From: Candidatus Latescibacterota bacterium
GTDB taxonomy: Bacteria; Latescibacterota; UBA2968; UBA8231
DNA: 64,000 bases
Assembly (NCBI GenBank): GCA_965206595.1
Contig: OZ242214.1
Coordinates: 3,648,001 to 3,712,000 of the forward strand
Reading direction: 5' to 3'
Every line of letters begins with the position of its first letter. Position 1 is the first letter of the stretch. This document shows positions 24,076 through 50,780 of the stretch, one piece after another. Below the pieces are notes generated by a model. The model saw only the letters and a program-made list of their open reading frames with translations, had not been told where the DNA came from and ran no database searches. The position numbers and the translations under genes were made by a program.

Positions 24076-24172
24076 AAAGCTCCTGACGCCCTCTTGACAC
24101 TCCGGCAGAGAGTGCATTACTTGCGCTTTTACAGTCACCCGCCGGAAGGGGCTCCCCGGAGGAATCCATTAA

Positions 24173-28281: not shown

Positions 28282-29720
28282 CTACGACCCCCAGGTGCGT
28301 TCCCAGCGCGCGTAGATGCCCCGCGCTTCCCCCTGTCTCGTATCGAGGGCAAGGGCCAGACGATTGTCGCCGTTCCTGGATTCGAGGCGCAACGACGTCG
28401 TGTCTTGAACAGCCGGACTGCTGCCGGGGCCCTCGAAAACCTCCCGTCCGTTCCACCACACCTTTACCGGACCATCGTAGCCGAGGTGGACGTCGACCAG
28501 GTCCCATGGCCCCACTTCGATGTCCACGACAAAGTATACGAATCCGCCGCGGCTTTCGATGACGTTGCCGGCATCGATGAAGTTGTAGCCAGGCGTATGA
28601 GGAGTACCATCCTCGGGCATACGCACCGGACCAAATTTCCGCGAGCCCGCCTCCGGATCAGGCTCAGCTGCCGCCTCGAGGCCGCGATGGGTCTCCACCA
28701 GATCGCTGACCAGCATTTCGTCGATGAAATCGGCTCCGGAGAGGACGTCGGCTACGTAGATGTCCGGCTTCGTCCACTGGTCCAGCTTCGGGTCTTCGTT
28801 GGCGATGGCGTTGCTGTAGAAGCTGAGGGAAAACCGATGGCTGTTATCCGGGCGGCGGGCGACGCCCATGTAGGAGTTGTCCGGGTGAAGCCCGGGCGGT
28901 AGCACGCAATCAGGAAGCATTCACCATCAATGACCCTGAAGATGCCCGTGTGTGCGGCATGGTCTTCTTCCTCGTGTATGCGGATGTCGATCGGGTCCCA
29001 GCCGCCCGAGATGTAGACCCGGCCATCTACGGTCCAGCAGGCGGGACCGGTCACTCCGACCTCCAGTTGCTGCATATCCCACTTCTCGAACGGGTGTTGG
29101 CTGTGGCACAGTTTGGGTTTCTTGAGGCCGCTTTCGCACCGCATGAGCATCGTGGCGGTGCCGTCAGGCAGGATTTCCAGATAGCATTCGTTCGCCATAT
29201 CCTCCGGTGGATCGTTTATTGGTCGGACATCGACCCAGTTGCGGCCATCTTCACTCTCGAACCAGTGCACCCCATACGGTTGCCCGTAACGACATCCCGC
29301 GCAGTAGTGCTTGCCCCGATGCCAGACGGGACGCCACAACGCGAAATTGCAAGTCCCTTCATAGGGCTCAAAGGGCGTCCAGTGATCGCCGTTCTCCGTG
29401 ACGGCACAGCCCGACAGCACCGGATGGCTGTCGGTGGGATCGACATAAAAAGTGCAGTACAACCTGCGTCTGCAGTACAACCTGCGTCCGTCCGGGTAGA
29501 GGTGAGAATCGCGCGTGTCATCGTCGCGGCGCAGCACGGCCACCCTGTCCCATGTGACCCCCGCATCGCGACTGCGCTGAACGATGCGACCGGAATCGTC
29601 CTGATGGTGGACATCGCCCTGGCGATACTCCCCGTAGAGTTCCCCCTTGAACCAGCTCGCTCCGGTGAACGCATTGTGCAGGCGGTCATTCGTTATGCGA
29701 CGGATGCTGAGAACTTTCAT
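28282..29720 (-). pseudogene. BNR/sialidase-like beta-propeller protein split by a frameshift
   Basis: HNAFT, SRDAGVTW, ESEDGRNW Asp-box-like motifs in 28752-29720; continuation (LPPG..DNSYMG..LSFYS) in another frame from about 28915. Confidence 0.7.
29453..29488. repeat. 18-bp perfect tandem duplication
   Basis: TGCAGTACAACCTGCGTC x2 (gives RRLYC-RRRLYC on the minus strand). Confidence 0.9.
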
Positions 29721-29881
29721 CGAGTTGACTCTCTATGACTTTCGTGGTATGCCGAGCTCACCGGAACAGGGCGAGGGACTGCTCGATGTCCGCCTTACCG
29801 CCGTGCTTCTATGCCGAAAACTCGTCGTCGTGGCTTGCGCCGGGCGCTCGGGGCTCCGCCGGAGTGACTTCAGTTTTTTGC

Positions 29882-29910
29882 TTGACATTTGCCTTCATTA
29901 TATATACCTT
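29882..29910 (+). promoter_or_regulatory. sigma70-type promoter
   Basis: TTGACA-17 nt-TACCTT, upstream of GGGAGG RBS and ATG 29963. Confidence 0.65.
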
Positions 29911-29962
29911 CACCCCGCATTGCCAGAAAGAGCAATGGATTTTCCTTTTAGGGAGGGATGAA

Positions 29963-30808
29963 ATGAAAAAAGTAGCTGTTTTAACTGCAGTTTTCGGATT
30001 GGTCGGCACGAGTATTGCTCATCAGCCGGAGGGAGAGCTCGAGTTTATCGTGCAGTTTCCCGACGAGGGGGTCCCAAGTGTAGACGGGAATGGTGGCGAT
30101 TGGGATGGAGTCCCGTCGAGATACCTTATGGGCTCTGACCAACTCTACAACTCGTATTCTGAGGAAGGTCGCGGCCAGGACGACCGTAGCGACATGAACA
30201 TCACTCACATGGTCGGGTGGAACGACAACCTCAACAAGCTGTACTTCCTCACCACGGTGTTCGACAACGTGCACAATACCGATCGGGCCGATCCTGGCCC
30301 ATTCTACAAAGATGACGCCCTGGAGATCGAAGTGGACACCCAGCACAAACCCCAGTCGGAGCAAAATGTGGACGTTGCCGACAGGATCGCTTACAAATTC
30401 GCTGTGCCCCCCGTTTCGGACGCGTTCTATTTCACGCGCCCCGTTGCCGGGGTAGCTGCATGGCTCGCTCCTGGCACTGAGTGGGTGGACTTTGGGTGGA
30501 GCTTCGACGGGGATCAGTTCGGCGAGAGCACCTACACTTACGAGTTGGCCATCACACCCATCGAGTCCTTTCCGAAGGACGAAGCCACCGCTCAGGACGG
30601 AGTAACAGTCTGGGACTTGGAGGAAGGTGATGTCATTCATCTCTCCATCAACGTTGGCGATATTGACGCGGGTGACGACTACCACGGCTTCCATAGCCTT
30701 TCGCCGACGAGCTGGAATACCGACTTCGCCCTGGACGAGATAGCCTCCGATTTCGCGACTGCCGTCGAGACAGATACTTGGGCCCGCATCAAGGCCCAGT
30801 TCAAGTAG
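29963..30808 (+). CDS. secreted CBM9/DOMON-like sugar-binding protein with C-terminal TAVETDTWARIKAQFK tail
   Basis: Signal peptide; PSVDGNGGDW, VGWND, DDALEIEVD, YELAI motifs. Confidence 0.7.
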   Translation: MKKVAVLTAVFGLVGTSIAHQPEGELEFIVQFPDEGVPSVDGNGGDWDGVPSRYLMGSDQLYNSYSEEGRGQDDRSDMNITHMVGWNDNLNKLYFLTTVFDNVHNTDRADPGPFYKDDALEIEVDTQHKPQSEQNVDVADRIAYKFAVPPVSDAFYFTRPVAGVAAWLAPGTEWVDFGWSFDGDQFGESTYTYELAITPIESFPKDEATAQDGVTVWDLEEGDVIHLSINVGDIDAGDDYHGFHSLSPTSWNTDFALDEIASDFATAVETDTWARIKAQFK

Positions 30809-30846
30809 CGCCTGACGAGTAGCTGTCAGGTGCAGTGAGGAGTGGC

Positions 30847-30890
30847 AAGACCCGTGTCCCGCTTTGTGGGACGCGGGTCTTTTGTTTTCT
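30847..30890 (+). terminator. intrinsic terminator or intercistronic stem-loop
   Basis: AAGACCCGTGTCCCGC-ttt-GTGGGACGCGGGTCTT followed by TTGTTTTCT. Confidence 0.8.
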
Positions 30891-30904
30891 GGCGGGAGAC
30901 GACG

Positions 30905-33031
30905 ATGTCTCACTCGGTTTTCTGGGTCGGTCTGGTTAGCCTGGTTTTGACCGGGCAGGCCATGGCCGCAAGGTCGGAATATATCCTGGCCGGGGACAGT
31001 GGGATCCCTGGCCGCCAGACCTGGCCGACAGCCCTGGCGGCAGACCCCGGCTTCTACGTCGTTTTCGACAACGACGGCAAGCCCATCGAATCCGTTCCCG
31101 TCGCCCAGGCTCCCCAGGGGGCAGGCGCCGATACCCTCATCGACTACAGCAACGGCGCCATTGAATGCGTCGACATAGACCCCACCTGGAACTTGGCCCG
31201 GCATCTAGAGCTGGCGGATGGTCGAATTACCTCGAGCATGCAATATGGCTATCTGTACGCCGAGCTGGAATCCATCGTCAAGTCGTTTGACGGCAACCCG
31301 ACGACCGCTGCCTACCGCCCCTTTAAACAGGATCCCGACGGGCTTCCAGGCATAGGCGAGGGGTTTCGGGATAACTTCATCGTCGACCTGGGAGCGGACT
31401 TCCCGATCAACCGGGTCCGGTTTTACCCCCGCTTGGGCCGCGATGAGGATGCCCGGATCATCGAGCGGATGGAAAAGCCCAAACCGGACAAATCAGCATT
31501 CGACACCGTGAGCTTCTCTGAAAATTACCTCGAATGGTACGAGCTCAGCGTGGCCGACAATAGCAAGCCGTTCTCCAAAGATCCCACCCCCACCAGCTGG
31601 GTGCCGGGCACGCGCTGGTTCCACAGCACCGAGCGCTTTGGGGCAACGCTCGACCCGTGGTTCACGAGCCTCAAACTGACCACCGAAAATCTGGACGTGG
31701 TCGTGGATCACCGCTTCCCGCTGCGCCACGAGCGTTATGTGGCCGTCAGGCCCATCAAACCGCTGCGCGGTTGGGAAATCGCCGAGATGGAAGTCTACGG
31801 AGAGGGCTACACCAGGAAAGGGGTGTTCCTCACCAATATCCTGGACTTCGGGCAGGCAGTCAGTTGGGGCAAGATCCGCTGGGCTGGCGAGGTCCCCCCG
31901 GGCACCAAGGTGGATATCAGGACCCGCACGGGCAATGATCCGCACCCCAGCCTCTACTGGAAGCCGGACGAGATCTCCCGCGAACTGGAGCCGATTACCC
32001 TCGAGGAGTGGGGAAAGATCGTAGGCAACAATCGTCTGGACCCCACCTACGACTGGGAAAACTGGAGCTTCTGGTCACCCCCTTACGATTTCGAATCCGG
32101 TCTCCGCGATCCGTCTACAGAGGCCGGTTTGTGGGAAGATGGCATGTCGCTGCAGTCGCCCGGCCCCAGCCGCTACCTCCAGCTCCACATTGTGCTCAAG
32201 TCGACCTTCAATGCTACGCCTCGCCTGGACGCGCTATGGATCCAGTTCTCCCAGTTTCCAGCCGCCTCCGAGCTGGTGGGGGAAATCTGGCCGATCGAAG
32301 TGGATTCTTTCGAGTCGCGCAACTTCACCTATATCGTCCGTCCGGATTTTTTCGAGGGCGATACCGGCTTCGACCGCCTCGAGATTCTCACCTATACCAC
32401 GGTAGAAGAGGTCCACTCCGTCAAAATAGACTCCCGGAAGATTGATCTGTCGGATCCGAATTATACCCCCAAGATCCTGCCCGACCGAATCATCGTGAAG
32501 CTGGACAGAAAACTGCAAGACCCGGCCACCGACCGCCTCAAGCAGGTGGAGGTAAATTTCGACGTCGCCGTGCTGCGCTTTGGCACCGAATTCAAGGGAT
32601 GGGTATTCAACAGCGACGACCCGGATCGCCTGAAGCAGCAGATCAAGCCGGGCAACGCCACTTTCCGCTTTGCCGGAGACGTACTGTCGGTGCGCACTAC
32701 GGTGGGGGGAGATCTGCTCGTGTTCATAGAGACTGCTCCCAGTCCCTTTACCCCCAATGGAGACGGGATCAACGACGATCTGTCCCTGTCCTTCAAGGTG
32801 CGAGAGGTGGCCGTGCGTCGATCCATTCAGGTGGAGATTTACGATCTGGCCGGCAACAGGGTCCGGACTTTGACGAACAAAGACGCCACAACGGGTTCGT
32901 ACTCTTTTGCCTGGGATGGAACCAACGGCGGTGGCGATAGAGTTTCCCCCGGCCTCTACCTCTACCGCATCACCCTGGAATCTGATGGGAAGAAACACGA
33001 GAAACTGGGCAGCATAGCCGTGGCCTATTGA
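30905..33031 (+). CDS. secreted protein with a discoidin-like domain and C-terminal FlgD/T9SS-CTD-like domain (paralogue 1)
   Basis: Signal peptide; VDLG..FPINRVRFYPR; RTRTG; PFTPNGDGIND; IYDLAG; WDG; PGLY. Confidence 0.85.
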   Translation: MSHSVFWVGLVSLVLTGQAMAARSEYILAGDSGIPGRQTWPTALAADPGFYVVFDNDGKPIESVPVAQAPQGAGADTLIDYSNGAIECVDIDPTWNLARHLELADGRITSSMQYGYLYAELESIVKSFDGNPTTAAYRPFKQDPDGLPGIGEGFRDNFIVDLGADFPINRVRFYPRLGRDEDARIIERMEKPKPDKSAFDTVSFSENYLEWYELSVADNSKPFSKDPTPTSWVPGTRWFHSTERFGATLDPWFTSLKLTTENLDVVVDHRFPLRHERYVAVRPIKPLRGWEIAEMEVYGEGYTRKGVFLTNILDFGQAVSWGKIRWAGEVPPGTKVDIRTRTGNDPHPSLYWKPDEISRELEPITLEEWGKIVGNNRLDPTYDWENWSFWSPPYDFESGLRDPSTEAGLWEDGMSLQSPGPSRYLQLHIVLKSTFNATPRLDALWIQFSQFPAASELVGEIWPIEVDSFESRNFTYIVRPDFFEGDTGFDRLEILTYTTVEEVHSVKIDSRKIDLSDPNYTPKILPDRIIVKLDRKLQDPATDRLKQVEVNFDVAVLRFGTEFKGWVFNSDDPDRLKQQIKPGNATFRFAGDVLSVRTTVGGDLLVFIETAPSPFTPNGDGINDDLSLSFKVREVAVRRSIQVEIYDLAGNRVRTLTNKDATTGSYSFAWDGTNGGGDRVSPGLYLYRITLESDGKKHEKLGSIAVAY

Positions 33032-33040
33032 GGTGGGTAA

Positions 33041-35107
33041 ATGCAAAGGAGCCATCGCCGCAAGGCCGGAAGGAACTTCTCGCTTGTGTGCGGCTGGATC
33101 GCGACCGTATGCATGGCGCATGCGGCCGTCGCGCTGGAAACGATCACCATCGGCAAGAATGCCCGAGTCGATTGGGATGGGTCGGGGTCGAGCTTTAGGA
33201 CCATCGATCCGGAATACCGCGCCTTACTAAATCCCAACGAAATCCTCACCGGCAACGTACCGGGCGCTTTGATCTACTTCGACCATCCGGATTCTCCGGG
33301 CAGTCTCATTCCCAGACAGCTCGAGGAGGGCGAGAATGTAGCCCTTGAGGCCGTAGCGCGAGGCGGCAAGATCGAGGCTCCAAACGACAACGCTGCCGTC
33401 AAGAAAACCCTGGAGGAGTTGCTTACCAACGAGGCTGGAGGAGAGCTCTTGGCCTATGAGATAAGGAACGCTAACGCAAACGGGGCGCTGATCGATGGCG
33501 ATCTGGGAGGCCGCTTTGGGGTCAGCCTGATCCGTTTCTACCCCCGCAACACCCTACAGCGTTCTCCATCAACGCCTTTTCATCAGGACTTTATGAGAGC
33601 GTACGAAGTCTACGTCAACGACGGGCTCAATCTCACCAAAGACGGCAATCCCGACTGGGGGGAACCTCTGTCGGAGAACAATGAAAACATCAACCCAGTG
33701 GTCGAGGTGAATCTCGACCCGCCCCAGTATATCCAGTCCTTCCGGCTCAAATCCAAATCGTCAGTCGATTTCGAGATCGACGAGATCGAGGTTTTCGGCA
33801 CCGGTTTTGTGCCCACCGCTCGGTACCTTTCCGATGTGTTCGACCTGGGCCTGGCCGCATGGGGCAACATTCGCTGGACCGAACGTGTCATAGGCGATTC
33901 GTCCCGGGCTCGTCTGCTGATCTCTACCCGCACCGGCAGGGACTCAACGGCGTTCGTGTACACGCGCACGCTGGCCGAGAAAGATGATGCCCCGGAAATC
34001 TCGACGTCGCTGCGCAACCGCGGCCAACCGATGACCCGGAAGGAATATCAAGCACTCCCCGAGAGCGACGCTACGGGCGTGGATTGGAAGGCTGGTTCGG
34101 TCAAGGACGATCTTGAAAGCTGGAGCCCCTGGAGCACGGCCTATCCGCCCGAGGGCAACACCACCGAGGGCACCCCGATACTGTCGCCGGGGCCCCGGCG
34201 CTACATACAGTTTCAGGTACTGGCTCTGAGCGAGAATCTGGCCTCAGCTCGTCGCCTGGACAACGTCTCCTTAGAGTATCTGGTGCCGCCTCTGGCCGAT
34301 CAGCTCGTGGTCGAAATATTCCCGCGCGAAGTAGAGGCCTCTACCATCACGACATTCACCTATGCGGTGCGCCCCACCATAGAGACCGACGGGCTGCTCG
34401 GTTTCGATGCCTTTGAGATCTCCACGCCCCTACGCGTCGAGAGTGTGGACCGCATCGAAATCCTGAATTCCGATGGATCGCTGGCGGCCAAACATGACTT
34501 CATTGCACAAGATCCCGACGCAGGCAGCCCCTTCGAGATCACGGCCATTGAGGACAATAGATTCGCCGTCCGCTTCCCGCTCGTCCTGGATAATAAGAGC
34601 CTCCTTAAGATCACCTTCCGAGCTGCAGTACTGGTTTACAGTACGAGTTTCAGCGGCAGTGCGTCCCTTTCCGCCGAGCCGGACGCCATCCAGACCGCCG
34701 TCCCGGGAGACGCCGCCAACCTGGGGGAAACCGACGACCCTACGCTGTCGGGAAATACAGTTTTCAGTCCCTCCATCCTCGAAGGTCGGCTGATCGATGC
34801 GTTCGAGACCGTCCCCAATATCATTACCCCGAACGGGGACGACATTAATGATGAAGTTGCCGTAGTCTACAATATTCTCAGCCTGACCAAAGCGGGCAGA
34901 GTGACGGTGCAGATCTACGATCTGGCCGGCAGACTGGTCCACACCCTGCTCGACGACGACGAGCGCAGTGGCCGCTACTTCCTTGAGTGGGACGGACTCG
35001 ACGCCGAGGGGAACCGTGCTCTTCCGGGCATCTATCTGCTCTCGGTCTCTGTAGACGGAGACAGTCGCAACGATGCGCAAATAAAACCCATATCCGTAGT
35101 CTACTGA
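33041..35107 (+). CDS. secreted protein with C-terminal FlgD/T9SS-CTD-like domain (paralogue 2)
   Basis: Same motif series: DLG..IRFYPR, STRTG, SPGPRRYIQ, ITPNGDDIND, IYDLAG, WDG, PGIY. Confidence 0.85.
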   Translation: MQRSHRRKAGRNFSLVCGWIATVCMAHAAVALETITIGKNARVDWDGSGSSFRTIDPEYRALLNPNEILTGNVPGALIYFDHPDSPGSLIPRQLEEGENVALEAVARGGKIEAPNDNAAVKKTLEELLTNEAGGELLAYEIRNANANGALIDGDLGGRFGVSLIRFYPRNTLQRSPSTPFHQDFMRAYEVYVNDGLNLTKDGNPDWGEPLSENNENINPVVEVNLDPPQYIQSFRLKSKSSVDFEIDEIEVFGTGFVPTARYLSDVFDLGLAAWGNIRWTERVIGDSSRARLLISTRTGRDSTAFVYTRTLAEKDDAPEISTSLRNRGQPMTRKEYQALPESDATGVDWKAGSVKDDLESWSPWSTAYPPEGNTTEGTPILSPGPRRYIQFQVLALSENLASARRLDNVSLEYLVPPLADQLVVEIFPREVEASTITTFTYAVRPTIETDGLLGFDAFEISTPLRVESVDRIEILNSDGSLAAKHDFIAQDPDAGSPFEITAIEDNRFAVRFPLVLDNKSLLKITFRAAVLVYSTSFSGSASLSAEPDAIQTAVPGDAANLGETDDPTLSGNTVFSPSILEGRLIDAFETVPNIITPNGDDINDEVAVVYNILSLTKAGRVTVQIYDLAGRLVHTLLDDDERSGRYFLEWDGLDAEGNRALPGIYLLSVSVDGDSRNDAQIKPISVVY

Positions 35108-37461
35108 TCAATGGGGGAACGCGGTCTGGAATCGCGTTCCCCCAGGATCTCTTCCACCACCTTGCCCGTCTTCTCCTCTGCAATCTGCCGCATCCGGTGC
35201 CGGCGAGCCCCGCGCTCGAAGTGTTCGAACGCCGCCCTGGCCCGATCCTGTTGTCCGGTCCTCATATATAGTCTTCCCAGTTCCTGGTAGACCATGTAAT
35301 CCTCCGGGGCCAGGCTCGCAACCGTCGAAAGGTGCTGGATAGCGGCCTCATGGCGCCCCCTGCCGCTCTCGAACCTGGCCATGCTCCGCAACGCAGGCAC
35401 AGATTGAGGATCTACTGCCAGCGCCGTATTCAGGTAGCGCTCGGCCTCGGCTTCATGACCTCGCTTCAAGAGCAAGCCAGCCAGCTGGCACAGGCCCTCG
35501 ACATGATCGGGCTGCTGTTCGACCAGTATTCTGTACTCCGCCAGGGCCTGGTCATCCTTCCCCTGGACCTGGTAGAGCTGGGCAAGCTGATATCGCACCA
35601 GCAGGGAATCGGGCTTGAGTTCCAGGACCCTGGAATAGGCTGCCTCGGCTTTGGCCGGAGCGTCGCTCATCAGATACGCATAGGCGAGACGCCCGTGCAG
35701 TGCCGCCCATTCGGAGCGCCGCGGCATGAGATCCTGATAGAAGTCAATGGCCTGCTGGTATTCGGCTTTCTTCAGGAACACATCCGCCAGACGCAAGCGG
35801 ACATCATCTCGATCCGGATAGTAAGCCAGGAGCTGCCGATAGGCCTCTATGGCGTCGTCATAGCGCCGCCGCACCGCGTACATGGTGCCCAGCCCCAGGA
35901 GCGCATCCTCGTGGGCAGGGTCGAGTTTGACAGCGTGTCGGTACTGGCGCTGGGCATTGGCCTGCATCCCCTTTTCCTGGAAAGCCAGGCCCGTCAAGTA
36001 GTGCTGGTAGACGTCGCCTTCTGTGTTCATTGCTCCTACCCCGCGATTCGTCCCGAACAACAGCAACAGGAGGAGTACCCCGGCAAGTGCCAGCCGGGTA
36101 CCGCGCTGATTGAAAAGGGTCAGGAGCCCGTGCGCCGCGAAGAGCAGGAGGAACGGCACCACCGGCATTCGATAGCGGCCGGTTACGAAAAACAGGATGA
36201 CCGAGAAGGCATAGGTCGCGGTGAACAGCAGCACCAGCGCCCCGGCCGGACTCCGTCGTAAGGGTCCCATCAGACAGACGCCCAGACCGAGCAGGGCCAG
36301 CGGGGCAATCACGCCAAAGGGGAAGGCGAGGCCGTACTTCCACAGCAATCCCCGCAGCAGAGAGGAGTGCGTACGGGCGTAGTAGGGATCCAGGTTCCTG
36401 AGTATCTCGTCGCCGCGCCAGAACAGACGAGCTTTATGCAGCAGCAGGCCGAAATACGCCACAGGATCGGATGAGACAAATGACCAGGACTGGGAAAAGA
36501 AATAGCGCGATCCAGCCGACTTGCCGGTGATGCCCGCCTCGCGTTCGGGACGATTGACCAGATCGACCCATTCCCGACCCGGTCTGATGGTCACGGTATG
36601 TTCGTAGTCGGGATTGTTGCCAATAAAGAAATTGACCCCGGCATTATAGGAGACCAGCACCCATTCACTGCCCACAATGCGGTTGCGCAGGGTCACCGGC
36701 GCCAGCACGAGGGCGATGCCAAGGCAAAAGGCGGCCAGTTGCAATAGAAGGCCGCGTCTCGACCTCGGCAGCAATTGGTCGGCCTCTCCATCAAAAGGAC
36801 TTTCACCGCGGCCTCCTCGGCGTGGGCGGCTCCGCGCATCCGGTGGAGAAGCCGGCAGAAAACGGAGAGCCCACAGGAAGACGACGGGGGCGAACAGAAA
36901 TACGTTTGCAACCAGCAGTCCCGAGCATGCCAGCAGCAGACCGGCCAGCAACCAGCGGACCGCACCGGTGCCTCGGGCAGCCCACAGCAAGGTGAGCAGC
37001 AGGACTACGTGGAGGCACGTTGCCAGTCCGACCGGCAGCAGCTCTCCCTCGAAATAGATGAAAGGGCCGTAGAGCGCGGCCATACCGGCCGCCAGCCAGC
37101 CTACAGTCGGGGAGGAGAATGTCCTGCGCCCCAACCAGTAGAGCGAAACGCAGGTGATCGCGCCCGCCACGGCCTGCACAAAGCGGGGCAGGTAGTAATT
37201 TTCGCCGAACAGGGCGAAGAGCAGGCCGAGAAAGTAGGGATACAGCGGCGGCTGCCAGAAAGGCTCAGAGCTACCTGCCCAGGCTCCGCTCGCAAATTGC
37301 AGCGCCTCTTCCACATAGGTCCCGGCATCGACCACGGGGGTGTCGAACAGAGGACTTTCAGACGCATGATACAGGTAGAAAAGCCGCAGGGCCAAGGCCA
37401 GCCCCGCCAGCAGGGCCAGCCTGGCCCCTGTGCTCCGCCATCCTATGCTGCCGTGGCTCAA
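35101..37461 (-). CDS. ArnT/PMT-like (GT-C) glycosyltransferase fused to TPRs
   Basis: DAGTY, QPPLYPYFL, multiple TMs, GVNFFIGNNP, RYRMP, C-terminal TPRs; TTG start overlapping the upstream TGA is inferred. Confidence 0.8.
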   Translation of the reverse strand: MSHGSIGWRSTGARLALLAGLALALRLFYLYHASESPLFDTPVVDAGTYVEEALQFASGAWAGSSEPFWQPPLYPYFLGLLFALFGENYYLPRFVQAVAGAITCVSLYWLGRRTFSSPTVGWLAAGMAALYGPFIYFEGELLPVGLATCLHVVLLLTLLWAARGTGAVRWLLAGLLLACSGLLVANVFLFAPVVFLWALRFLPASPPDARSRPRRGGRGESPFDGEADQLLPRSRRGLLLQLAAFCLGIALVLAPVTLRNRIVGSEWVLVSYNAGVNFFIGNNPDYEHTVTIRPGREWVDLVNRPEREAGITGKSAGSRYFFSQSWSFVSSDPVAYFGLLLHKARLFWRGDEILRNLDPYYARTHSSLLRGLLWKYGLAFPFGVIAPLALLGLGVCLMGPLRRSPAGALVLLFTATYAFSVILFFVTGRYRMPVVPFLLLFAAHGLLTLFNQRGTRLALAGVLLLLLLFGTNRGVGAMNTEGDVYQHYLTGLAFQEKGMQANAQRQYRHAVKLDPAHEDALLGLGTMYAVRRRYDDAIEAYRQLLAYYPDRDDVRLRLADVFLKKAEYQQAIDFYQDLMPRRSEWAALHGRLAYAYLMSDAPAKAEAAYSRVLELKPDSLLVRYQLAQLYQVQGKDDQALAEYRILVEQQPDHVEGLCQLAGLLLKRGHEAEAERYLNTALAVDPQSVPALRSMARFESGRGRHEAAIQHLSTVASLAPEDYMVYQELGRLYMRTGQQDRARAAFEHFERGARRHRMRQIAEEKTGKVVEEILGERDSRPRSPIDQ

Positions 37462-40136
37462 TTCCCCAGGCCGGCGTACATGGTGATGAAACCCTCGGTG
37501 GTGGTATCGGCCTCTTGGTCCTTGAAGTCTCTCCTGTCCACCTTCATTCCTATCTGGGTCGTCAGTACATAGCCCAGATATTCGCTGGCATTGGCCAATT
37601 GCACAGCCACAGCCAGGCCGCGGAAGTCCTTTGCGTCCTCCCGGAAATCGTTGGCAAAGGTGTACTCGATCCCGGATTGCACCGTGGTGCGCTTGAGCAC
37701 TGGAAATCCCAGTAGAAGTCCGAGAATCTCCGTCAACACGCGCTCTTTGTCGGTGGAGAGCAATCCTCGGGATTGCCAGCGCCACTCGCTCTTCCATCTC
37801 GGTTCCAGGGTGAAATTCCCGATTGAGTAGCGGTAGCTGACCTTGTTGATAAGGCCGAAGAAAAAGTCGTTTGCCCGCGCCAGGCCGAGAGTCTCCCTTG
37901 TTTCCCTATCCTTGCGCTGATGGTAGAAGTCGTACTTCAGATAGTCGGCAATATCCAGGCCCCCGCGGTCGTAATCATGGCCGACCCAGAACGAATTGAT
38001 CCAGGCATCGCGGGCGAGCAGGGGATCCTCCACCCTCCTCGGCAGTCCGTCCTTCACTGTGACATCCGGAAACCACTGGAGCAGATCGTCGGGAATATCG
38101 TCTTCCGCCCGCTTGACCATCTCCATCAGGCGCAACCGGCCCAACGTCGGGGTTCTTTGATCCAAAGCGAATAGAGCATAAGAGGTGTGGTTCTTTTGAT
38201 CGGACGAGATCAGATCTTCGCGCAGGTGTCCAAAAGTAACCCGGACATCGGGGGTCAGGTGGAAGCCAAAGTAGGCATTGAATCCGCGGTGATCATTCGC
38301 ATAAGGGTAGTCTGGCTCTTCGTCGTTCTCGAACCGGTCGACCCATTGGTTGTTGTTCATATCGACGCCGAACAGTTGTTCGGGACGATCCACTTTGTGC
38401 CTCAGGAAGGCCTCTTCGTAATCCGGAATATCGTTGGTGCGACGGAAGTTGTCGTTCTGGTTGAAGTCGGGGACGAAGTCATTGTTCTCGTCCCACCCGG
38501 GAAATACCCTGCGGTCACCCTGGCGCCAGTCTGCCCGGATTGCATCGGGAAAGCGGTCCTGGTCGTCGTTGTCGTCGACCAGCTCTACAACGTGCTGGCG
38601 AGTGTCTTCATAATCGATGGATCCATCTGGGCGCGTGACAAAGGTCCGCGTACTGTAAAGCGGATCCATGCTGTAGGCTTCGCCGAAGAAGAACCAGGGG
38701 TGGGCGACCTTGGAGAGATTCATCATCCAGGCCGGTGCCGTCCGGCGCCCCGAGATGCCCGAGGAGGTCGAGTGCGACTTGCGGGTGATATTGGGATACT
38801 GGCGGTAGGTCAGACTCAGATCGTACTCGCCGTAGAAATTGAAGCCGCGCACATTGTTCATCTCCACAGTACCGCCCACGATCTGAGTGGCGGTAGGCAG
38901 ACCGTATTCAAACTCGAGCACCCTCAGATTGGTGTTGTCCTGCACATTGCCCTCGGCTTGCGCGACCAGCAGCAGCACCGGTCCCCCCGATTCGTTGGTC
39001 TGGCGGTCGGAGCTCATCCAAACCTGGTAATCGTTGCCAATCGTCATGCTGAATTCCACTCTCTTGATCTCCTCCTTGGCCCCGCTGGAACGATTTACAA
39101 ACGCAGGACTGTCGAAATCGAAGAGGATCTGGATCTCTTCTACGCCATCGGCTGAAAGGAATCCCTCCTGCACGAAGCCCCCCTGGATGACCGGCTCGAG
39201 GCCGATGTCTCTTCCCTTGTCGGTCTTGCCATTTGTGTATGTGATGAAGACGTCCAAGGCGTCCCGGAATAAGGCCGCCCCGCCCTCCCCATCCTCCGGG
39301 GAATCGTCTCTGAGCACGATTTGGATAGAGGAGATCGTGGAGTTCTGGTCGATAGTCAGAGCTCCCGCTACGGGGTTGCCCTTGAACCCGCTGACCAGGG
39401 TGTTCGACTGGTGGGTGTTTACGAACTGCAATCCGACACTGGTGAAATCGCCAATCTGAGCCTTGACGCGGCCTCCGGACAGGGTGGTGAGATTGGTCCT
39501 GACCAATTCCTGGTCGAGTGTGTGGACACCTCCGGGACTGCTGACGCGCGAATAGACCAGAGTCCCTTCGTACTTGTCCATGGCAAAATCGAACTGGGTT
39601 CCATCCCAGAGCGGCTTCGCAAAGGTCATAGGCGTCAGGGTTGTGCGGAGTTGATTCGATACGGTCAGGGCGTAGTGGTACTGACCTATCTGATCCGAAG
39701 CAATCGCCACTCCCGAGAACCAACTGTCAAATTGCTTTGCCTTGGTCAGCGAACTGCCAAACTGGCGCGGCTGCGTCTGGGAGTTGTCAAAAATCAGCCA
39801 ACCTCGGGTGACGAAATTTCCAAAAAGGTCGTAGAAATAGTCCCCTTCCAAGGAGGTAGTGACGTAGCGCTGGAAGTGGTCTCTGGCATAATTGGTATAA
39901 TCCCATTGCCTCCACCTGTACTCGTTGTAGAGTTCCTGCGGAACGTACCACTTCTTCACCGCCGGATCCAAAGCACCGAACAAAACGCCGGGGCCGTACG
40001 GAGCGAAACTAACTTCCCCGCCCCGCTGCGTGCCGAGGCGGGTCCCGTAATCCTGGGCGGTGACCCGATCGACCACCCCGGCAACCAAGCACGCGATAGA
40101 AACGACATGCAGGATATACCTGTTTCTTGGTTTCAT
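37458..40136 (-). CDS. large exported protein, probable outer-membrane beta-barrel with Asp-rich Ca-binding-like loops
   Basis: Signal peptide; alternating aromatic beta-strands; DDNDDQDRFPD, DENNDFVPDFNQNDN, DMNNNQWVD; ends FITMYAGLGN. Confidence 0.7.
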   Translation of the reverse strand: MKPRNRYILHVVSIACLVAGVVDRVTAQDYGTRLGTQRGGEVSFAPYGPGVLFGALDPAVKKWYVPQELYNEYRWRQWDYTNYARDHFQRYVTTSLEGDYFYDLFGNFVTRGWLIFDNSQTQPRQFGSSLTKAKQFDSWFSGVAIASDQIGQYHYALTVSNQLRTTLTPMTFAKPLWDGTQFDFAMDKYEGTLVYSRVSSPGGVHTLDQELVRTNLTTLSGGRVKAQIGDFTSVGLQFVNTHQSNTLVSGFKGNPVAGALTIDQNSTISSIQIVLRDDSPEDGEGGAALFRDALDVFITYTNGKTDKGRDIGLEPVIQGGFVQEGFLSADGVEEIQILFDFDSPAFVNRSSGAKEEIKRVEFSMTIGNDYQVWMSSDRQTNESGGPVLLLVAQAEGNVQDNTNLRVLEFEYGLPTATQIVGGTVEMNNVRGFNFYGEYDLSLTYRQYPNITRKSHSTSSGISGRRTAPAWMMNLSKVAHPWFFFGEAYSMDPLYSTRTFVTRPDGSIDYEDTRQHVVELVDDNDDQDRFPDAIRADWRQGDRRVFPGWDENNDFVPDFNQNDNFRRTNDIPDYEEAFLRHKVDRPEQLFGVDMNNNQWVDRFENDEEPDYPYANDHRGFNAYFGFHLTPDVRVTFGHLREDLISSDQKNHTSYALFALDQRTPTLGRLRLMEMVKRAEDDIPDDLLQWFPDVTVKDGLPRRVEDPLLARDAWINSFWVGHDYDRGGLDIADYLKYDFYHQRKDRETRETLGLARANDFFFGLINKVSYRYSIGNFTLEPRWKSEWRWQSRGLLSTDKERVLTEILGLLLGFPVLKRTTVQSGIEYTFANDFREDAKDFRGLAVAVQLANASEYLGYVLTTQIGMKVDRRDFKDQEADTTTEGFITMYAGLGN

Positions 40137-40206
40137 GATCCCTCCCTATTGCACGAAGGTCCTTCCGCCCTTTTGACTAGAGCGGCTGAAATGCCGCGGT
40201 CTATAC

Positions 40207-43200
40207 TTAATAGGCGACGGCCACGATTCGGGACAAGGTCATATTGGCTGAATCATCTGCATCTACATCCAGGTGGAGCTGGCAGATATAGAGTCCGGGC
40301 GGGACCTTGAGCCCGGCATGGTCGACCCCCGACCAGCGCAACGCGTGCGCCCCCCCCCGCGCCAGCTCAGATCCTTCCCACACCCGTCGACCGTCCAGCC
40401 TGTAGATCCGCAAGCGCACCTGCCGGTCCGCTGTCACCTGAAACACGGAGAACGACACGGTCAGTTCATCGTTGATGCCGTCGCCATTGGGGGTGAAGGG
40501 ATTGGGCGTCAGCACCACGTCGTCGAGCACCTTGCCGCCCACGGGCACGCTGAGGGACAGGCCCCGGCCCTCGGTCAAGGCGGTGGCATCGCCGCCGTCT
40601 ACCTGCTGCCACACAGGTTCGCCCGCCGGCGAGAGCTGGTCGGACTTGCGCACCAGCGCCTGCAGGGTCGTATTGAGAAAGACCGTCGCTGCCACCCGCA
40701 CCTGCAGCAGGCGACCCCCGCCCCGGGTCGTGCCCCGCTCCGAGCGCGGCAGCCGGTCGTAGGCCTCCTTAGTAAGGGTGTCGCCGGGCACCGTGTTAGT
40801 CGGGGAGTCGGCCTGCATCGCGAAGGGGAACTCGGCTCCCGCGCCCGACAGCTTGCGAAAATAGCGGATGGGTCCTTGCTCCCCGGCAGGCAGTTCGTCG
40901 TAGGCAAAGTCGGCAACCTTCTCCAGTCGCACCTGGCCAGAATCGTCGGTGATCCGTTGGAAAAAGAGGATCTGGCCCCGCTCGTCCTCGGGCAAGAGCC
41001 CATAGGCCGCTTCGGACAGCACCTCGCCGTCGTGGCCGACCACGACCTGGTCGCCCTCATCGGTGATGCGGTGGTAGCGTTTGGGCACCAGTTCGGCGGG
41101 GGCGCTCTGCATCAGAGCCGGCATGCGAAACCCCACTGCGCCACCGCCGCGTTCCAGCAACTCCAGGGTGTCGCCGGCCGCGCTGGCAAAGACCTCGCCC
41201 GTGGGTTCAAAGACCTGAAAGGGCTGCTGCTGCAAGAACTCGGCTTCAGTGCCGGAGCGCACCCCTACCAGGCGCAGATCCAACTCGGCCGGTCCCTGCA
41301 GGCGAACCTCGTCGAAGCCGGGCGTCCGAAGGGCGGAGGGGGCGTCGACAAAAGTCGAATTAAGGTAGATATCAAAGGTATCCCGCAGCCCGGCAGTGGC
41401 ATGCTGCGGCCATATCTCGCCAGTGAGGCTGCGGGCGACAGGATCGAACATTTCCACCTCGATCGAGCTCAACGTTGCCGCTTTCTGGCGGTCGTGAGAA
41501 ATCAATCTGGCCTCGATCTGCATGAACTGCCGCAGGCTGGGCGAGGTTACAGGATCGCCCGGCTGCAGGTTTGGGCGACTCCACGCGCTCCAGCCACTAC
41601 CCACGGCAAAGGAGGTATCGATGGGGCCGCGAAACTTGGGAGGCAGCTCATCCCACTCTTCAAAGGTCTTAAGATCGATGCCCGTCGAGCTGAGGTAACG
41701 GATGTTTTCCACCAGCAGATCGCCGGTGCGGGTGCGGATTTCCACTTCGGTGCCGGGGGAGTGCTGCTCGGGACCTGGGCTCCAGCGTATGGCGCCCAGG
41801 TTGCGCTGCCCGGGCAGGCGGATGAATCCCGAGGTTATGCTCGCCTCGGCCACATAACCCGCCGAATACATCAGGAGCTCCCCCAGCTCAAATGAGTAGC
41901 CGCCTGCCCGGTAGTTGGTCGTTGTATTTCTCATCTCCAGGTAGCGCAGCTTGACCGGCGGGTCGTAGATGTCCGAGATGAAGACGAACTGGTTGATCAA
42001 ATTGTCCTCCCGCTCTCGGGGGCTGACCCTGCGCCACTTGAGCGCTCCCGTGGCATCCCGGGACCCGTCCGAGCCCCGCACGATATACCCTTCTATGAAC
42101 GTACCGTCTTTTCTTGAGATACCCATGGCAGATGCGACGCGGATGTTGTCCAGCCACATCAGCGCCCCCAGATCAACGGTCATCACCGCCCGATCACTGA
42201 CGTAGGGAGACCAGACCAGGAACCTGAAGGAGCTGCCAAAGTCGGCGTCGAAGCCGGACCCGGCCTTGTAGGGACCGGTCATGTCCACCGCCCCCCCCGG
42301 GCCCAGCACCCCCGGCGAAAGATTGTCGCCCCAACCCCACACTTCCACCTCGCTAAGCCGGGGCCGCTCGCGAACATAATACTCCTGCCTGCCCTGACGC
42401 TGTGGACCCAGACTCTCGTATATCTCCTGTGCCACCGGCTCCTCGAACCCGGCCTCGTCCCGGATGTAGTAGACGATCTCGCCCCGCTCCCCCGCGGGCA
42501 GCGCCTCCCACGCCGCCGGCGTCACCTGACGCCCCCGAAATCGCTTGCTGTCCGTCACCAACACCCGAATCGTCTCCACCATCCGCCCCGTCCAGGAGGG
42601 GTCCGTTCCCGGCTGGACAAACCGGGGCTCGCCCTGTGCCGTCAACTCGAAAACCCGCTGCTCGGTGTTCGGCGCAATCGTCCCGCCCACCACACTGAAA
42701 TTCCCCCACTGGTATTCGTTGGTCGAGCCAAACTCGCTCTCCTCCGTCAGCAGCACCCGCTGCTCCGGCGAAGCCAGCACCCGAAACTGGCGAAAGGGAT
42801 CCCCCTCGGCCTCGTCGACAAAGTGCAGCACCACCTTTTCGACCACTACCACCCGACCCAGGTCGATCTCCACCCACCAGTTGTCAGAAGTGTCCGCCAG
42901 GTCCGGTTCCCAATACGTCGACGGATCCCCATCGAGAACGTAGGCCGCAGAATCCACATTCGAACCCGCCCGGCTGATCCCCGGACGAACGAAATAGGCG
43001 TACTCGGGAAACTGCTCCTTGGATTTGGTCTCAAACGTCTGCCGCGAGCGAGCACCGGTGCGCTCGTTGCGCAAAGCAAGTGCTACCTCGTCGCCATTCA
43101 TCGTCGTGTCGGTGATGGTGAACACATCCCCGGCCAGGACGATGCGGGTGACATCGCTCGGAATGCGGCCGAAATCCTGGTCCAGGTACTTGCCGATCTT

Positions 43201-43566
43201 CTCCTCCGCCAGCTTGAGTTTCCCCTCCCGGTCAAAAACCGGCGTGCGATCCACCGTCCGGATGGTCCGGTCTGCCCCGCGGATCCTGGGCGCGTCGATG
43301 GGGCGCCGGAAGCTGGCCTGGTCCTCGGCCAGGATGTTGTAGACGTGCCGAAAAAAGTGGGGCCGGACCTGCCCATCGACGAGGTCCAGGACGTGTTCGG
43401 GCCGGCTCCACTGGGCCCAGTGCTCCTGGGTCTCGACGATAATCTGGGTGTCGGTGACGTCGGCCGACTGGGCTCGCGAGTGGAAAATGCCGAACCCCGC
43501 GATTGCCGCCCACGCCAGTCCGATCCGAAGCCATCTCATCGAGGAATTGACCTCTGTCCGCTGCAT
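40207..43566 (-). CDS. secreted protein with discoidin-like domains and C-terminal FlgD/T9SS-CTD-like domain (paralogue 3)
   Basis: DGDPSTYW..WVEIDLG; RTRTG; GEIWP; PNPFTPNGDGIND; PGLY; ends AVAY. Confidence 0.85.
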   Translation of the reverse strand: MQRTEVNSSMRWLRIGLAWAAIAGFGIFHSRAQSADVTDTQIIVETQEHWAQWSRPEHVLDLVDGQVRPHFFRHVYNILAEDQASFRRPIDAPRIRGADRTIRTVDRTPVFDREGKLKLAEEKIGKYLDQDFGRIPSDVTRIVLAGDVFTITDTTMNGDEVALALRNERTGARSRQTFETKSKEQFPEYAYFVRPGISRAGSNVDSAAYVLDGDPSTYWEPDLADTSDNWWVEIDLGRVVVVEKVVLHFVDEAEGDPFRQFRVLASPEQRVLLTEESEFGSTNEYQWGNFSVVGGTIAPNTEQRVFELTAQGEPRFVQPGTDPSWTGRMVETIRVLVTDSKRFRGRQVTPAAWEALPAGERGEIVYYIRDEAGFEEPVAQEIYESLGPQRQGRQEYYVRERPRLSEVEVWGWGDNLSPGVLGPGGAVDMTGPYKAGSGFDADFGSSFRFLVWSPYVSDRAVMTVDLGALMWLDNIRVASAMGISRKDGTFIEGYIVRGSDGSRDATGALKWRRVSPREREDNLINQFVFISDIYDPPVKLRYLEMRNTTTNYRAGGYSFELGELLMYSAGYVAEASITSGFIRLPGQRNLGAIRWSPGPEQHSPGTEVEIRTRTGDLLVENIRYLSSTGIDLKTFEEWDELPPKFRGPIDTSFAVGSGWSAWSRPNLQPGDPVTSPSLRQFMQIEARLISHDRQKAATLSSIEVEMFDPVARSLTGEIWPQHATAGLRDTFDIYLNSTFVDAPSALRTPGFDEVRLQGPAELDLRLVGVRSGTEAEFLQQQPFQVFEPTGEVFASAAGDTLELLERGGGAVGFRMPALMQSAPAELVPKRYHRITDEGDQVVVGHDGEVLSEAAYGLLPEDERGQILFFQRITDDSGQVRLEKVADFAYDELPAGEQGPIRYFRKLSGAGAEFPFAMQADSPTNTVPGDTLTKEAYDRLPRSERGTTRGGGRLLQVRVAATVFLNTTLQALVRKSDQLSPAGEPVWQQVDGGDATALTEGRGLSLSVPVGGKVLDDVVLTPNPFTPNGDGINDELTVSFSVFQVTADRQVRLRIYRLDGRRVWEGSELARGGAHALRWSGVDHAGLKVPPGLYICQLHLDVDADDSANMTLSRIVAVAY

Positions 43567-43742
43567 GTGAGACCTCCTGAAGTCCTCGCAATTTCAGCCG
43601 GAGACTCTCGATCGGTAGGGCATTGGTTATTCGAGCCGCAAATATAACCCATTGACCGCCTTTCCCGACACGCAGCGCAGCGCGCAGACGAGTGCGCGCC
43701 GTATCGCCGGCCGCATGGCTCCGGGCGTCTCACAAGCGCCTG

Positions 43743-43774
43743 ACGGACAATAGATACGGACAATAGATACGGAC
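43743..43774. repeat. 13-bp tandem repeat in a divergent intergenic region
   Basis: ACGGACAATAGAT x2 plus ACGGAC. Confidence 0.85.
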
Positions 43775-43815
43775 CCTTATGATACCCATCTTTCGCCATT
43801 CAGCGAGTGTAGGGA

Positions 43816-44807
43816 ATGACCGGAGACAACGAGGTGGGAACCTGGCGGTTCCTGCATGTCAACGACAGCCGCATGGGCACGCCGCGCTCGTACCGATTTC
43901 GTGCGGCAACCAACCAGCGCTGGGCGGCCATCAAGCGCCAGGTGGCGCAAATCGATGCCGAGTTCCTCCTGCACGGCGGCGATCTGACCCGCGACGGCGA
44001 AACGCATGAGTTCGAGTACGCACGGGCGCGCGATGATCTCGACACCTTGCCTTTTCCGGTGTTCGTCATTCCCGGCAATATGGACGTCGGCAACAAGCAC
44101 GCAGCCCGGAGTGGAACCAAACGAAAATGGGAAGAGCTGGGCCTCGGCTGGAATGATCCCGACTTGAATATGACCGAACACCGGCTGCACCTGTTCGCTT
44201 CGTATTTCGGCCCTATCCACTGGGCGTTTCTCCATCGCGGTGTCCGCTTCACGGGCTTCTTCGCCGCAGTCGCCTGTTCGGGCTTGCCGCATGAAGACCG
44301 GCTGTGGCCGCTCTCGAGCGCCTGCCCGACCTGCCGCCTGCCCGCCATCGCGTGGCTGTGATGCATTACTGGCCATTCATGGAGGAGTTGGACGAACCCG
44401 CCTGGGACCTCACGAGCGCGGACCAATACGACAACTGGTATTTCTTCATCGACCCGCCCCATCGCCAGCGACTCTGGCAGCTGCTTCAAGCCGCCGGCGT
44501 CGACATCCTGTTCTGCGGCCACGTGCACACCGGACGCCCCGTTCAGGTTGTCGACGCATCCGCGTATGTCGCACCCAACCCGCCGGCACACGGCTCAACT
44601 CGCCGAGCGCTGGCCCGAAGCGGACACGCGCTTCGGCTTCCACGTTGCGAAGTGACCGATGCCGGCATCGGAATCACCTTCATCCCGGACGACGATCAGT
44701 GCGCCGAGTTCGACAGCTACGGTCCGATGGGACATCCACCTGTCGGCGTGCGCGACTACTCGGCAGCCAGAGAAAGTCCGGCGCTCATCCCGGACGCACA
44801 CGATTGA
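43816..44807 (+). pseudogene. metallophosphoesterase (calcineurin-like), frameshifted
   Basis: LHVNDS, GGDLT, PGNMD, MHY, CGHVH motifs spread across frames; shift near 44312 and three 1-bp losses at about 44555-44645. Confidence 0.8.
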
Positions 44808-44852
44808 TGCCGAAACTCCTGACCGTGAACCAGCAAGAAGAGAGGCTCCGAG

Positions 44853-45934: not shown

Positions 45935-46029
45935 ACAGTAGTTCCCCGAATGAATTACAGTAGTTCCCCGAATGAATTACAGTAGTTCCCCGAATGAATT
46001 ACAGTAGTTCCCCGAATGAAGTGGGGAAC
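45935..46029 (+). repeat. 22-bp tandem repeat (3 full copies plus 20 bp) ending in an inverted half-site
   Basis: ACAGTAGTTCCCCGAATGAATT at 45935, 45957, 45979 and partial at 46001, then GTGGGGAAC. Confidence 0.95.
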
Positions 46030-46053
46030 GTGAGTTCCGAGGAGTGATTGCAG

Positions 46054-47229: not shown

Positions 47230-47301
47230 GTGGATCTGCTCGACTCGCCGATCAAGAGCGCGGCCATCGGCTTGTGACCGCGGACACACAGGGTTTTTGA
47301 G

Positions 47302-50444: not shown

Positions 50445-50780
50445 CGCTCGGTGCGACTCCCGCCTGCCTGCCGGCTTTGGAAGGGGGATGTAACAGAACT
50501 CGGTCGATTTCCGAGTGCCGGCAACATCCCGTTACTGTGGTGGCGATCGGGAACGCATACGCGCCATGGCATCGCCTCATTGTCCTTCTACAGGATAATT
50601 CATGGCACCGTGGGAAGTCCAGAAATTGGACCGCGCACCGCCGGCAATTCGGAGTCGGAAACGCGGGGCAACTGCCGGGGCTCTAATTGAGACCGGCTGC
50701 CAACCTTGGTATTATGGTTGTATGCTCTGAGCTTTTCCTCAAATCCATCAGGGTCGTTGTCGATCGCGAGGGATGAGCCT

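Follow-up and report, generated by a model that had tools for sequence, protein, structure and literature searches.

The window analysed here is a 64-kb stretch of contig OZ242214.1 from a Candidatus Latescibacterota bacterium (64,000 nucleotides, the part of this genome that was available), and its positions 29963-43566 carry six genes, designated A to F, that our comparisons support as one conserved, lineage-specific functional module, present in multiple copies and joined in most of them by a seventh gene, G. The six genes and a hairpin between two of them are arranged as follows.

29963-30808, plus strand: A, 281 aa, secreted, partly CBM9_1-like
30847-30881, plus strand: hairpin followed by a U-run, between A and B
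30905-33031, plus strand: B, 708 aa, secreted beta-sandwich protein with a type-B-like C-terminal domain (B-type tail)
33041-35107, plus strand: C, 688 aa, paralogue of B with a C-type tail
35101-37461, minus strand: D, about 786 aa, inner-membrane GT-C (PMT_2) protein with a C-terminal tetratricopeptide repeat (TPR) array
37458-40136, minus strand: E, 892 aa, with a signal peptide, beta-rich, putative large outer-membrane barrel
40207-43566, minus strand: F, 1119 aa, paralogue with an F5/8 type C domain and an F-type tail

All six open reading frames (ORFs) are intact and long, and they form two convergent operons, A-B-C on the plus strand and F-E-D on the minus strand, with C and D overlapping by 7 nt; ORF coordinates and strands agree in this with the sequence-only reading, an earlier annotation made from the letters of the window. 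The start codon of D is TTG and overlaps the stop codon of E, while strong Shine-Dalgarno sequences lie 5' of A, E and F (GGAGG before the ATG of A). Signal peptides were read by eye from the sequences (hydrophobic N-termini, A-x-A-type cleavage sites), and A, B, C, E and F each have a signal-peptide-like start and no hydrophobic helix further on. Purifying selection acts on all six genes, with dN/dS ratios of 0.13-0.36 relative to L001 and 0.20-0.52 relative to L002, two of the loci described below. Pseudogenes were ruled out, the six genes being intact with dN/dS below 1, and a mobile element was also ruled out, as E had no match among plasmid records and no repeats flank the cluster. An Rfam search upstream of A and of F found nothing.

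At least 590 relatives of E are encoded in GTDB species genomes, from at least 626 matching stretches, and the best 80 of these stretches yielded the 79 loci (L001-L079) in which all ORFs were compared against the six window proteins. Complete flanks of ±10 kb were present in 59 of the 79 loci, referred to as fully flanked, contig ends having cut many of the others. E was found in 78 loci, F and D in 74 each, C in 69, B in 61 and A in 53; among the fully flanked loci, D, E and F occurred together in 56 of 59, B to F in 51 and all six genes in 45. The sequence-only reading had proposed a conserved, lineage-specific gene set and had named a lack of conserved co-occurrence in other genomes as the finding that would speak against it; these counts bear out the proposal, and no such lack was seen. 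The core order F>E>D is constant, with C, B and A next to it in variable orientation, the commonest orders being F>E>D>C<B>A> (18 loci), F>E>D>C>B>E'>A> (13 loci), A>B>C>F>E>D> (6 loci) and F>E>D>C>B>B>A> (5 loci). The gene order of the window recurs in L001 and L002 only, and L001 encodes an E protein 96% identical to that of the window, its DNA being 97% identical and collinear over positions 29233-43669.

A tree of E resolved roughly 8-10 well-supported paralogue clades, each of which holds orthologues from several assemblies, indicating that the multiplication of the module is ancient; a single assembly, with the complete chromosome OZ244561.1, supplied six of the 79 kept loci. Conservation across paralogue subtypes is even, at about 0.45-0.5, without any hypervariable binding domain; of the module's proteins, E is conserved best. 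A word-indexed search returned 1077 E homologues at E ≤ 1e-3, of which the 120 best were 53-96% identical to E and 750-934 aa long; the named ones among these 120 are annotated as 'hypothetical' and come mostly from Latescibacteria. Of the 955 representatives (50% identity) that an exhaustive profile search with E gave, 313 had E ≤ 1e-30. By submitter label, 62 of the 79 loci belong to Latescibacterota, 14 to Gemmatimonadota and 1 to Acidobacteriota, and 2 are unlabelled. The contigs labelled Gemmatimonadetes, Gemmatimonas or Bryobacterales (L014, L017, L025, L027, L034, L054, L059, L061 and others) have E genes that are nearly identical to Latescibacterota ones, and are probably mislabelled or mis-binned. 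No published description of the module was found in the literature searched, in keeping with the earlier view of it as undescribed; expansions of Por-type tails have been mentioned for SAR406, not for Latescibacteria (PMC5596340).

B, C and F are true paralogues. BLASTP aligned B with C at E 3e-55 (28% identity over 593 columns), B with F at E 6e-23 in the tail and 1e-9 in the middle, and C with F at E 9e-16 in the tail and 3e-10 in the middle. A profile comparison of B against F reached a probability of 100 (E 9e-57) and gave the architecture of F as an N-terminal extension, a B-like body, an insertion of about 190 aa and the tail. The motifs IRW, TRTG, WS.WS, EI[WF]P, GFD, TPNGD.IND, IY.L.G, PG.Y and a terminal V[AV]Y follow one another in the same order in all three proteins; SP...RY.Q is offset by one residue in B, and F is without the RFYPR and E.E.Y..GY forms. 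Both the paralogy of the three ORFs and the ordered motif series, as first read from the sequence, were confirmed, the latter with these small deviations in B and F.

The C-terminal tails scored above the Pfam cut-off for CHU_C (PF13585; 27 bits) in all three proteins (B 45.0, C 32.2 and F 30.8 bits), and FlgD_ig matched B (45.1 bits) and C (40.9 bits) and did not match F. CHU_C was also matched in 26/26 B/C orthologues and 15/15 F orthologues, these counts being taken at an E-value limit of 0.05 (B/C) or 0.01 (F) and not at the bit cut-off. The earlier assignment of the tails as CTD/FlgD-like (CTD, C-terminal domain) holds at the level of Pfam CHU_C and FlgD_ig, but not for NCBIfam TIGR04131, which stayed below its cut-off in all three proteins. 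A similar split applies to the discoidin domain that had been read into all three: F5_F8_type_C sits in the N-terminal extension of F (36.2 bits, F only) and is matched in 15/15 F orthologues, but in only 2/26 B/C orthologues (E 0.022), and the label is weak for B and C because it rests only on alignment to the second jelly-roll region of F.

The paralogues fall into three types, B, C and F, which do not interchange, and every type has a tail of its own. They form separate orthologous groups, scoring about 550-780 bits to their own type and about 55-165 bits to the other two, and a tree of the last 110 aa separates the B, C and F groups with supports of 96, 84 and 98. Within the sampled loci, only B, C and F carry this type of tail. 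In the window, a hidden Markov model (HMM) of the last 110 aa gave 127-131 bits for B, C and F and no other strong match; the FlgD_ig tail of a large protein encoded at 3601-9933 reached 41.5 bits, without TPNGDGIND and with a different end. Applied to all ORFs of the 79 loci, the same HMM retrieved 73 F, 69 C and 65 B proteins together with 2 truncated fragments of these, the remaining matches being 9 small proteins with a generic Por_Secre_tail-type end and without the TPNGD motif. The final Tyr is invariant on the B, C and F tails. Profile matches of the tails in the PDB were FlgD Ig domains, the C-terminus of PorU and, weakly, C5a peptidase (in the tail region of C). Outside the tails there were marginal matches to a few unrelated proteins (E 0.04-0.95), and the sequence-profile searches of the PDB found no convincing solved relative of the B, C and F bodies.

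E is a putative large outer-membrane barrel, in which 27 amphipathic beta-like segments were counted. An acidic, highly conserved stretch lies at residues 515-615, with DxDxDG-like and DxNNNxxD-like loops that we take to recall Ca-binding motifs, and the mature N-terminus (residues 41-120), which is Trp/Tyr-rich and not coiled-coil-like, is as conserved as this stretch. The one Cys (0.1%) is located in the signal peptide, and there is no conservation of a Cys-lipobox. E itself had no match in Pfam and NCBIfam at E ≤ 0.1, its 120 best homologues carry no Pfam domain, Pfam matched no S-layer homology (SLH) domain in it, and its profiles matched no PDB sequence. In more distant relatives, SlpA_C (PF21620; cut-off 35 bits) appeared in 4 of 12 distant E representatives (best 30.2 bits) and in 9 of 52 diverse representatives of the E superfamily at E ≤ 0.01 (best E 2e-7), with no other Pfam family matched. 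E is also homologous (probability 100, E 9e-81) to a second family, multi-copy as well and about 980 aa long; one 5.87-Mb contig occurs more than 12 times among the matches of that family, and some of its members bear a precomputed PF21620 assignment. In a mean-field coevolution analysis of 400 E homologues (effective number 208), local and gap signals predominated, and antiparallel ladders could not be told from parallel ones. None of the recurrent ORFs in the 79 loci is PorP-like.

D combines at least eight hydrophobic segments within residues 12-477, a PMT_2 match (PF13231; 29.2 bits, cut-off 26.1) and a PVVDAGTY acidic loop as its first loop with C-terminal matches to TPR families of up to 91.9 bits. 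Its N-terminal 480 aa had no match among PDB sequences, and its TPRs gave weak, generic NCBIfam matches to the BcsC, PgaA and PrsT models, far under the cut-offs. The reading of D as a GT-C/TPR protein was upheld by these matches and by the multi-pass N-terminal half. The Asp-rich character ascribed to E was confirmed by its composition (9.1% Asp). Two classes of module can be told apart by D. Class I, which includes the window, comprises 49 of 74 loci, in which the GT-C half has an acidic P(V/I)(V/I)DA..Y loop and E is single throughout. In class II, the GT-C half either is without the acidic residue and has the periplasmic loop deleted (19 of 74 loci) or is missing altogether, a TPR-only protein with a lipoprotein-like start replacing D (6 of 74 loci). 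All 16 loci with two E genes are without the acidic loop, an association that does not represent independent events, since they all fall in one large clade of the E tree; E and E' of one locus are 60% identical over their full length. The loci L057-L079 are class II modules, with two E paralogues in the clade. As the GT-C half is degenerate or absent in class II, the constant half of D is its membrane-anchored periplasmic TPR array.

A was matched by CBM9_1 (PF06452) at 27.2 bits, above the cut-off of 23.4, and by the same family in 8/15 A orthologues at E ≤ 1; its profile had no match in the PDB. The CBM9_1 match covers only model positions 27-83 of 185, and the sugar binding once assigned to A is a candidate role. 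In 115/115 members of the A family, a His (H20) directly follows the predicted signal-peptidase site, with Ala or Gly at position -1 in 113/115, and H104 (113/115) as well as Y191 and Y193 (114/115) are nearly as constant. A mature N-terminal His is a hallmark of copper histidine-brace proteins such as those resembling lytic polysaccharide monooxygenases (LPMOs), and that of A may bind a metal; no LPMO family of Pfam matched A or its orthologues. A ends in a conserved TAVE..SW(G/A).IK tail (window positions 30760-30808), which was also found on five unrelated, secreted-looking ORFs (L001 1028-1789 and L001 4025-4942; L061, L065 and L069 at about 4320-4888), one of them with an FGE-sulfatase domain, and this tail may be an undescribed sorting or docking tag. 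The hairpin 3' of A has a perfect, GC-rich stem of 16 bp followed by the U-run, and hairpins of the same shape and different sequence follow A in L002, L004 and L006 (z-scores -4.4 to -5.4). It is probably a terminator or attenuator, and the conserved structure of hairpin and U-run suggests that A is expressed above B and C.

Among the remaining genes in the 79 loci, the most frequent is that of the G family, a SurA/PpiD-like peptidyl-prolyl isomerase (PPIase) lipoprotein of about 550 aa, present in 65 of these loci and usually directly upstream of F. Neither this seventh component nor the multiplicity of the module nor the N-terminal His of A figured in the sequence-only reading. The H family (FG-GAP/UnbV_ASPIC/TPR) was found in 43, the I family (DUF6785+DUF6784 membrane protein) in 28 and the J family (Phosphodiest) in 10; flanks beyond A-J consist of unrelated housekeeping genes, and no glycoside hydrolases, lyases or esterases recur beside the module. 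In the window, the genes of these families and those with a bearing on export are the following.

3601-9933: 2110-aa FG-GAP/Big_5/fn3 protein with a FlgD_ig tail, upstream of the PorV/PorQ-family gene
11369-13750, plus strand: PorV/PorQ-family outer-membrane protein with C-terminal TPRs (NF033709 PorV_fam)
19520-21625, plus strand: I, DUF6785+DUF6784 membrane protein (Pfam, family HMM)
22378-24138 and 26216-28165, minus strand: two H-type FG-GAP/UnbV_ASPIC lipoproteins (Pfam, HMM; lipoprotein N-termini read by eye)
24173-26143, plus strand: SurA_N-like lipoprotein with TPRs, its N-terminal part G-like (G HMM 128 bits; SurA_N_3 weak)
50706-52460, plus strand: G-like, SurA/PpiD-like PPIase lipoprotein with rotamase domains (family HMM 571 bits)

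The protein at 11369-13750 matched NF033709 at 104.8 bits (cut-off 90) over model positions 13-324 of 326, and Pfam PorV at 16.9 bits only. Its gene stands third in a row, after those of the 2110-aa protein and of an FG-GAP protein, with BamD downstream at 15330-16616. The other core components of the T9SS (type IX secretion system) that were looked for, SprA, PorK/L/M/N and PorU, were not found within the window. Several smaller features were seen in the same DNA. The gene of the 2110-aa protein contains a 321-nt tandem repeat (2.2 copies, 7274-7972) corresponding to Big_5 domain repeats. Upstream of A, 28282-29720 on the minus strand holds two overlapping ORFs without a family match that may be a single frameshifted gene, in the longer of which an SxDxGxTW motif resembling an Asp-box was seen by eye and 18 nt are duplicated in tandem and in frame (29453-29488). 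On the other side, the collinearity with L001 stops at 43669, about 100 bp upstream of F, and a 13-nt tandem repeat of 2.5 copies (43743-43774) lies just past this end; a calcineurin-like phosphoesterase gene in the region 43669-44810 is split by a frameshift near 44300, and a perfect 22-nt tandem repeat (3.9 copies, 45935-46020) occupies the intergenic space upstream of the ORF at 46044-47300. The window also holds four tRNA genes, for Pro, Arg, His and Arg (1208-2799; 18429-18505).

Taken together, the module most likely builds an outer-membrane-anchored surface protein complex of a kind not described before. For the roles within it, we tentatively favour, at somewhat short of an even chance, an arrangement in which B, C and F would have E as their partner or anchor in the outer membrane, with a TPR scaffold in the periplasm and, optionally, a glycosyltransferase assisting. 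A, B, C, E and F would be exported via the Sec pathway, and G, as a dedicated SurA-like PPIase, would chaperone the exported proteins together with the TPR array of D, which would be made in step with E through the stop/start overlap. E would be inserted in the outer membrane as a large SlpA_C-like barrel whose acidic insertion is probably Ca2+-binding. B, C and F would cross the outer membrane by a T9SS-like translocon encoded elsewhere, a passage with which the PorV/PorQ-family gene in the window fits, and each would dock on E via its distinct CHU_C/FlgD-Ig-type C-terminal domain ending in the invariant Tyr, by analogy with type B T9SS cargo on the cognate PorP/SprF-like barrels of Bacteroidota. 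The three proteins could then be displayed together as a fixed, heteromeric complex in which beta-sandwich and discoidin-like domains combine. In class I modules, the GT-C half of D may glycosylate the cargo or E with a sugar taken from a polyprenyl-phosphate donor, and A would be a small accessory protein, expressed more strongly, with an N-terminal His that is possibly metal-binding.

Several observations weigh against this arrangement. TIGR04131 scores of 27.4, 20.6 and 13.6 bits in B, C and F are all under the cut-off of 35, E is not related to PorP/SprF and is about three times larger, and the T9SS is stated in one review to be specific to Bacteroidetes (PMC7463736). SlpA_C did not match the E protein of the window, and the SlpA_C similarity within the E superfamily is local (about 70-100 residues) and mostly below the cut-off. 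The G-like gene of the window is not adjacent to the cluster, lying 7 kb from it on the other strand, and its product is at most 48% identical to cluster-linked G. Glycosylation, finally, cannot be essential to the core mechanism, because a whole clade has lost the GT-C half or has it in degenerate form. As regards the export route, a paper of 2025 calls SprA 'FCB-specific' (FCB, Fibrobacterota-Chlorobiota-Bacteroidota), missing only in Chlorobiota, and does not name Latescibacterota in the text searched (PMC12611786).

An alternative explanation is that E is itself an usher-like outer-membrane translocon for B, C and F, with G and the TPR array of D as chaperone and scaffold, in a route independent of the T9SS. 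Such a role would suit the large size (892 aa) and the high conservation of E, the link of the exclusive tail type with E in every case, the PPIase and TPR parts that the module has of its own and the TIGR04131 scores below cut-off; it accords poorly with tails above the Pfam CHU_C threshold, with the PorV/PorQ-family gene that stands in the window beside another FlgD_ig-tailed protein, with a module that has no energy source or motor and with an acidic insertion that may plug the pore as in SlpA, and we consider it unlikely. A wider form of this idea, in which E, the TPR array of D and G make up a self-contained, T9SS-independent export and anchoring route and A in addition founds a copper histidine-brace-like family of secreted proteins with an N-terminal His on a CBM9-like fold, appears similarly improbable. 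Genes that are neighbours by chance or through shared regulation only, with unrelated functions, would be in agreement with the generic and widely used nature of each protein's domains (TPR, Ig-like tails). The probability of this is very small given the synteny across some 8-10 ancient paralogue clades and many genomes (56/59, 51/59 and 45/59 loci, as above), the stop/start coupling of E and D and the restriction of the tail type to B, C and F.

Two further explanations assign the module to glycans. In the one put forward by the sequence-only reading, a non-Sus system for glycan capture and import, A, B, C and F would bind polysaccharide, E would be the uptake channel and the DUF6785/6784 protein, found near 28 of 79 loci and in the window, the inner-membrane permease. 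The F5/8 type C domain of F, the partial CBM9 likeness of A and the many paralogous copies per genome, which recall polysaccharide utilization loci (PULs), would be explained in this way. It was not borne out: the 79 loci show no recurrent family of glycoside hydrolases, lyases or esterases next to the module, E has no TonB-dependent features in Pfam or NCBIfam, among B/C orthologues the Pfam discoidin domain is matched in only 2/26, and conservation is even (~0.45-0.5), without a variable binding domain, E being 53-96% identical among the 120 best matches. SusC/D paralogues are far more divergent than the paralogues of the module. The GT-C, TPR array and PPIase would moreover have no part in uptake, and we regard glycan capture as improbable. 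A PUL-like locus as such was ruled out, no carbohydrate-active enzymes (CAZymes) being linked. Export of a glycoconjugate or exopolysaccharide, in which the GT-C half would build or transfer a lipid-linked glycan, the TPRs would bridge to E as a porin and A, B, C and F would retain or organise the polymer, seems slightly less probable still. BcsC, PgaA and AlgK/AlgE are exporters of this TPR-plus-barrel kind, and the translational coupling of D and E, the union of GT-C and TPR in D, the weak BcsC, PgaA and PrsT matches of the D TPRs and the lectin-like domains of the partner proteins are in line with it. These TPR matches are generic and far under the cut-offs, however, genes for a GT-2 synthase, Wzx/Wzy or sugar nucleotides are not recurrent among the loci, and in 25 of 74 loci E, the TPRs and B, C and F are retained with a GT-C half that is degenerate or missing.

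Latescibacterota are widespread in sediments, soils and sponges; to our knowledge they have no cultured members and their cell envelope is essentially undescribed. With several copies per chromosome, the module ranks among the gene sets that are repeated and conserved most in this phylum. If the favoured arrangement is right, CTD-type tails would be used together with outer-membrane partners of a new class in an FCB phylum outside Bacteroidota, a first role would be assigned to a large family of outer-membrane proteins that has no Pfam entry, and a GT-C/TPR enzyme of bacteria would be linked to defined client proteins. Leads that can be tested without culture are the invariant N-terminal His of A, its SWGxIK tail and the three tail types.

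Compared to known systems, SusC/SusD PULs resemble the module in occurring as multiple copies and in combining a large protein of the outer membrane with binding proteins at the surface, but no TonB-dependent transporter, SusD or CAZymes are present in the cluster, the window or the recurrent neighbours. The BAM complex (beta-barrel assembly machinery) of Flavobacterium johnsoniae contains BamD (TPR), a PPIase-fold, calcium-structured BamM and the surface lipoprotein BamH with a carbohydrate-binding fold (PMC12611786), and so shares with the module a barrel, a protein with TPRs, a PPIase, an acidic element of the Ca type and a surface part that is lectin-like; only the parts list is similar, as no sequence relationship was found. 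The eukaryotic O-mannosyltransferases TMTC1-4, whose clients are cadherin domains, share with D a multi-pass PMT_2-type N-terminus and C-terminal TPRs (PMC7001481, PMC7801869), and the proposed clients of D would likewise be beta-sandwich domains of an adhesion type; unlike them, D is a bacterial protein, and class II modules dispense with its GT-C half.

Closer to E is SlpA of Deinococcus radiodurans, a 30-stranded barrel formed by residues 254-1167 (about 914 aa), with pore insertions held by Asp-coordinated metal sites, which has been proposed as a scaffold possibly anchoring the S-layer (PMC9388160). E is similar to it in its size of about 900 aa and in having acidic insertion segments, which are metal-binding in SlpA, and SlpA_C is the sole Pfam family matched within the E superfamily; in contrast to SlpA, E has neither an SLH domain nor a coiled-coil stalk, and the similarity is local. 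For the module as a whole, the comparison of interest is the type B T9SS (SprB-SprF, PG1035-PorP-PorE). Type B CTD genes are reported to be often linked to the genes of cognate PorP/SprF-like barrels that bind them (PMC9143113, PMC12618676), and the module likewise has modular, Sec-exported proteins whose CHU_C-type tails are about 100 aa long, cargo genes beside the gene of an outer-membrane protein here proposed to bind or anchor the cargo, a TPR-containing periplasmic partner (PorE there, the TPR array of D here) and a PorV/PorQ-family gene in the window. It differs in that E falls outside PorP/SprF in family and size, in TIGR04131 scores below the cut-off, in its three fixed paralogous cargo types, its GT-C, PPIase and protein A and its many copies, and in belonging to a phylum outside Bacteroidota. 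CTD tails, TPRs, GT-C and PPIase are thus partly known kinds of parts, whereas the family-less E, the B, C and F bodies, the set of three fixed tail types, the multi-copy architecture of seven genes and the N-terminal His of A are new and unpublished in the literature searched.

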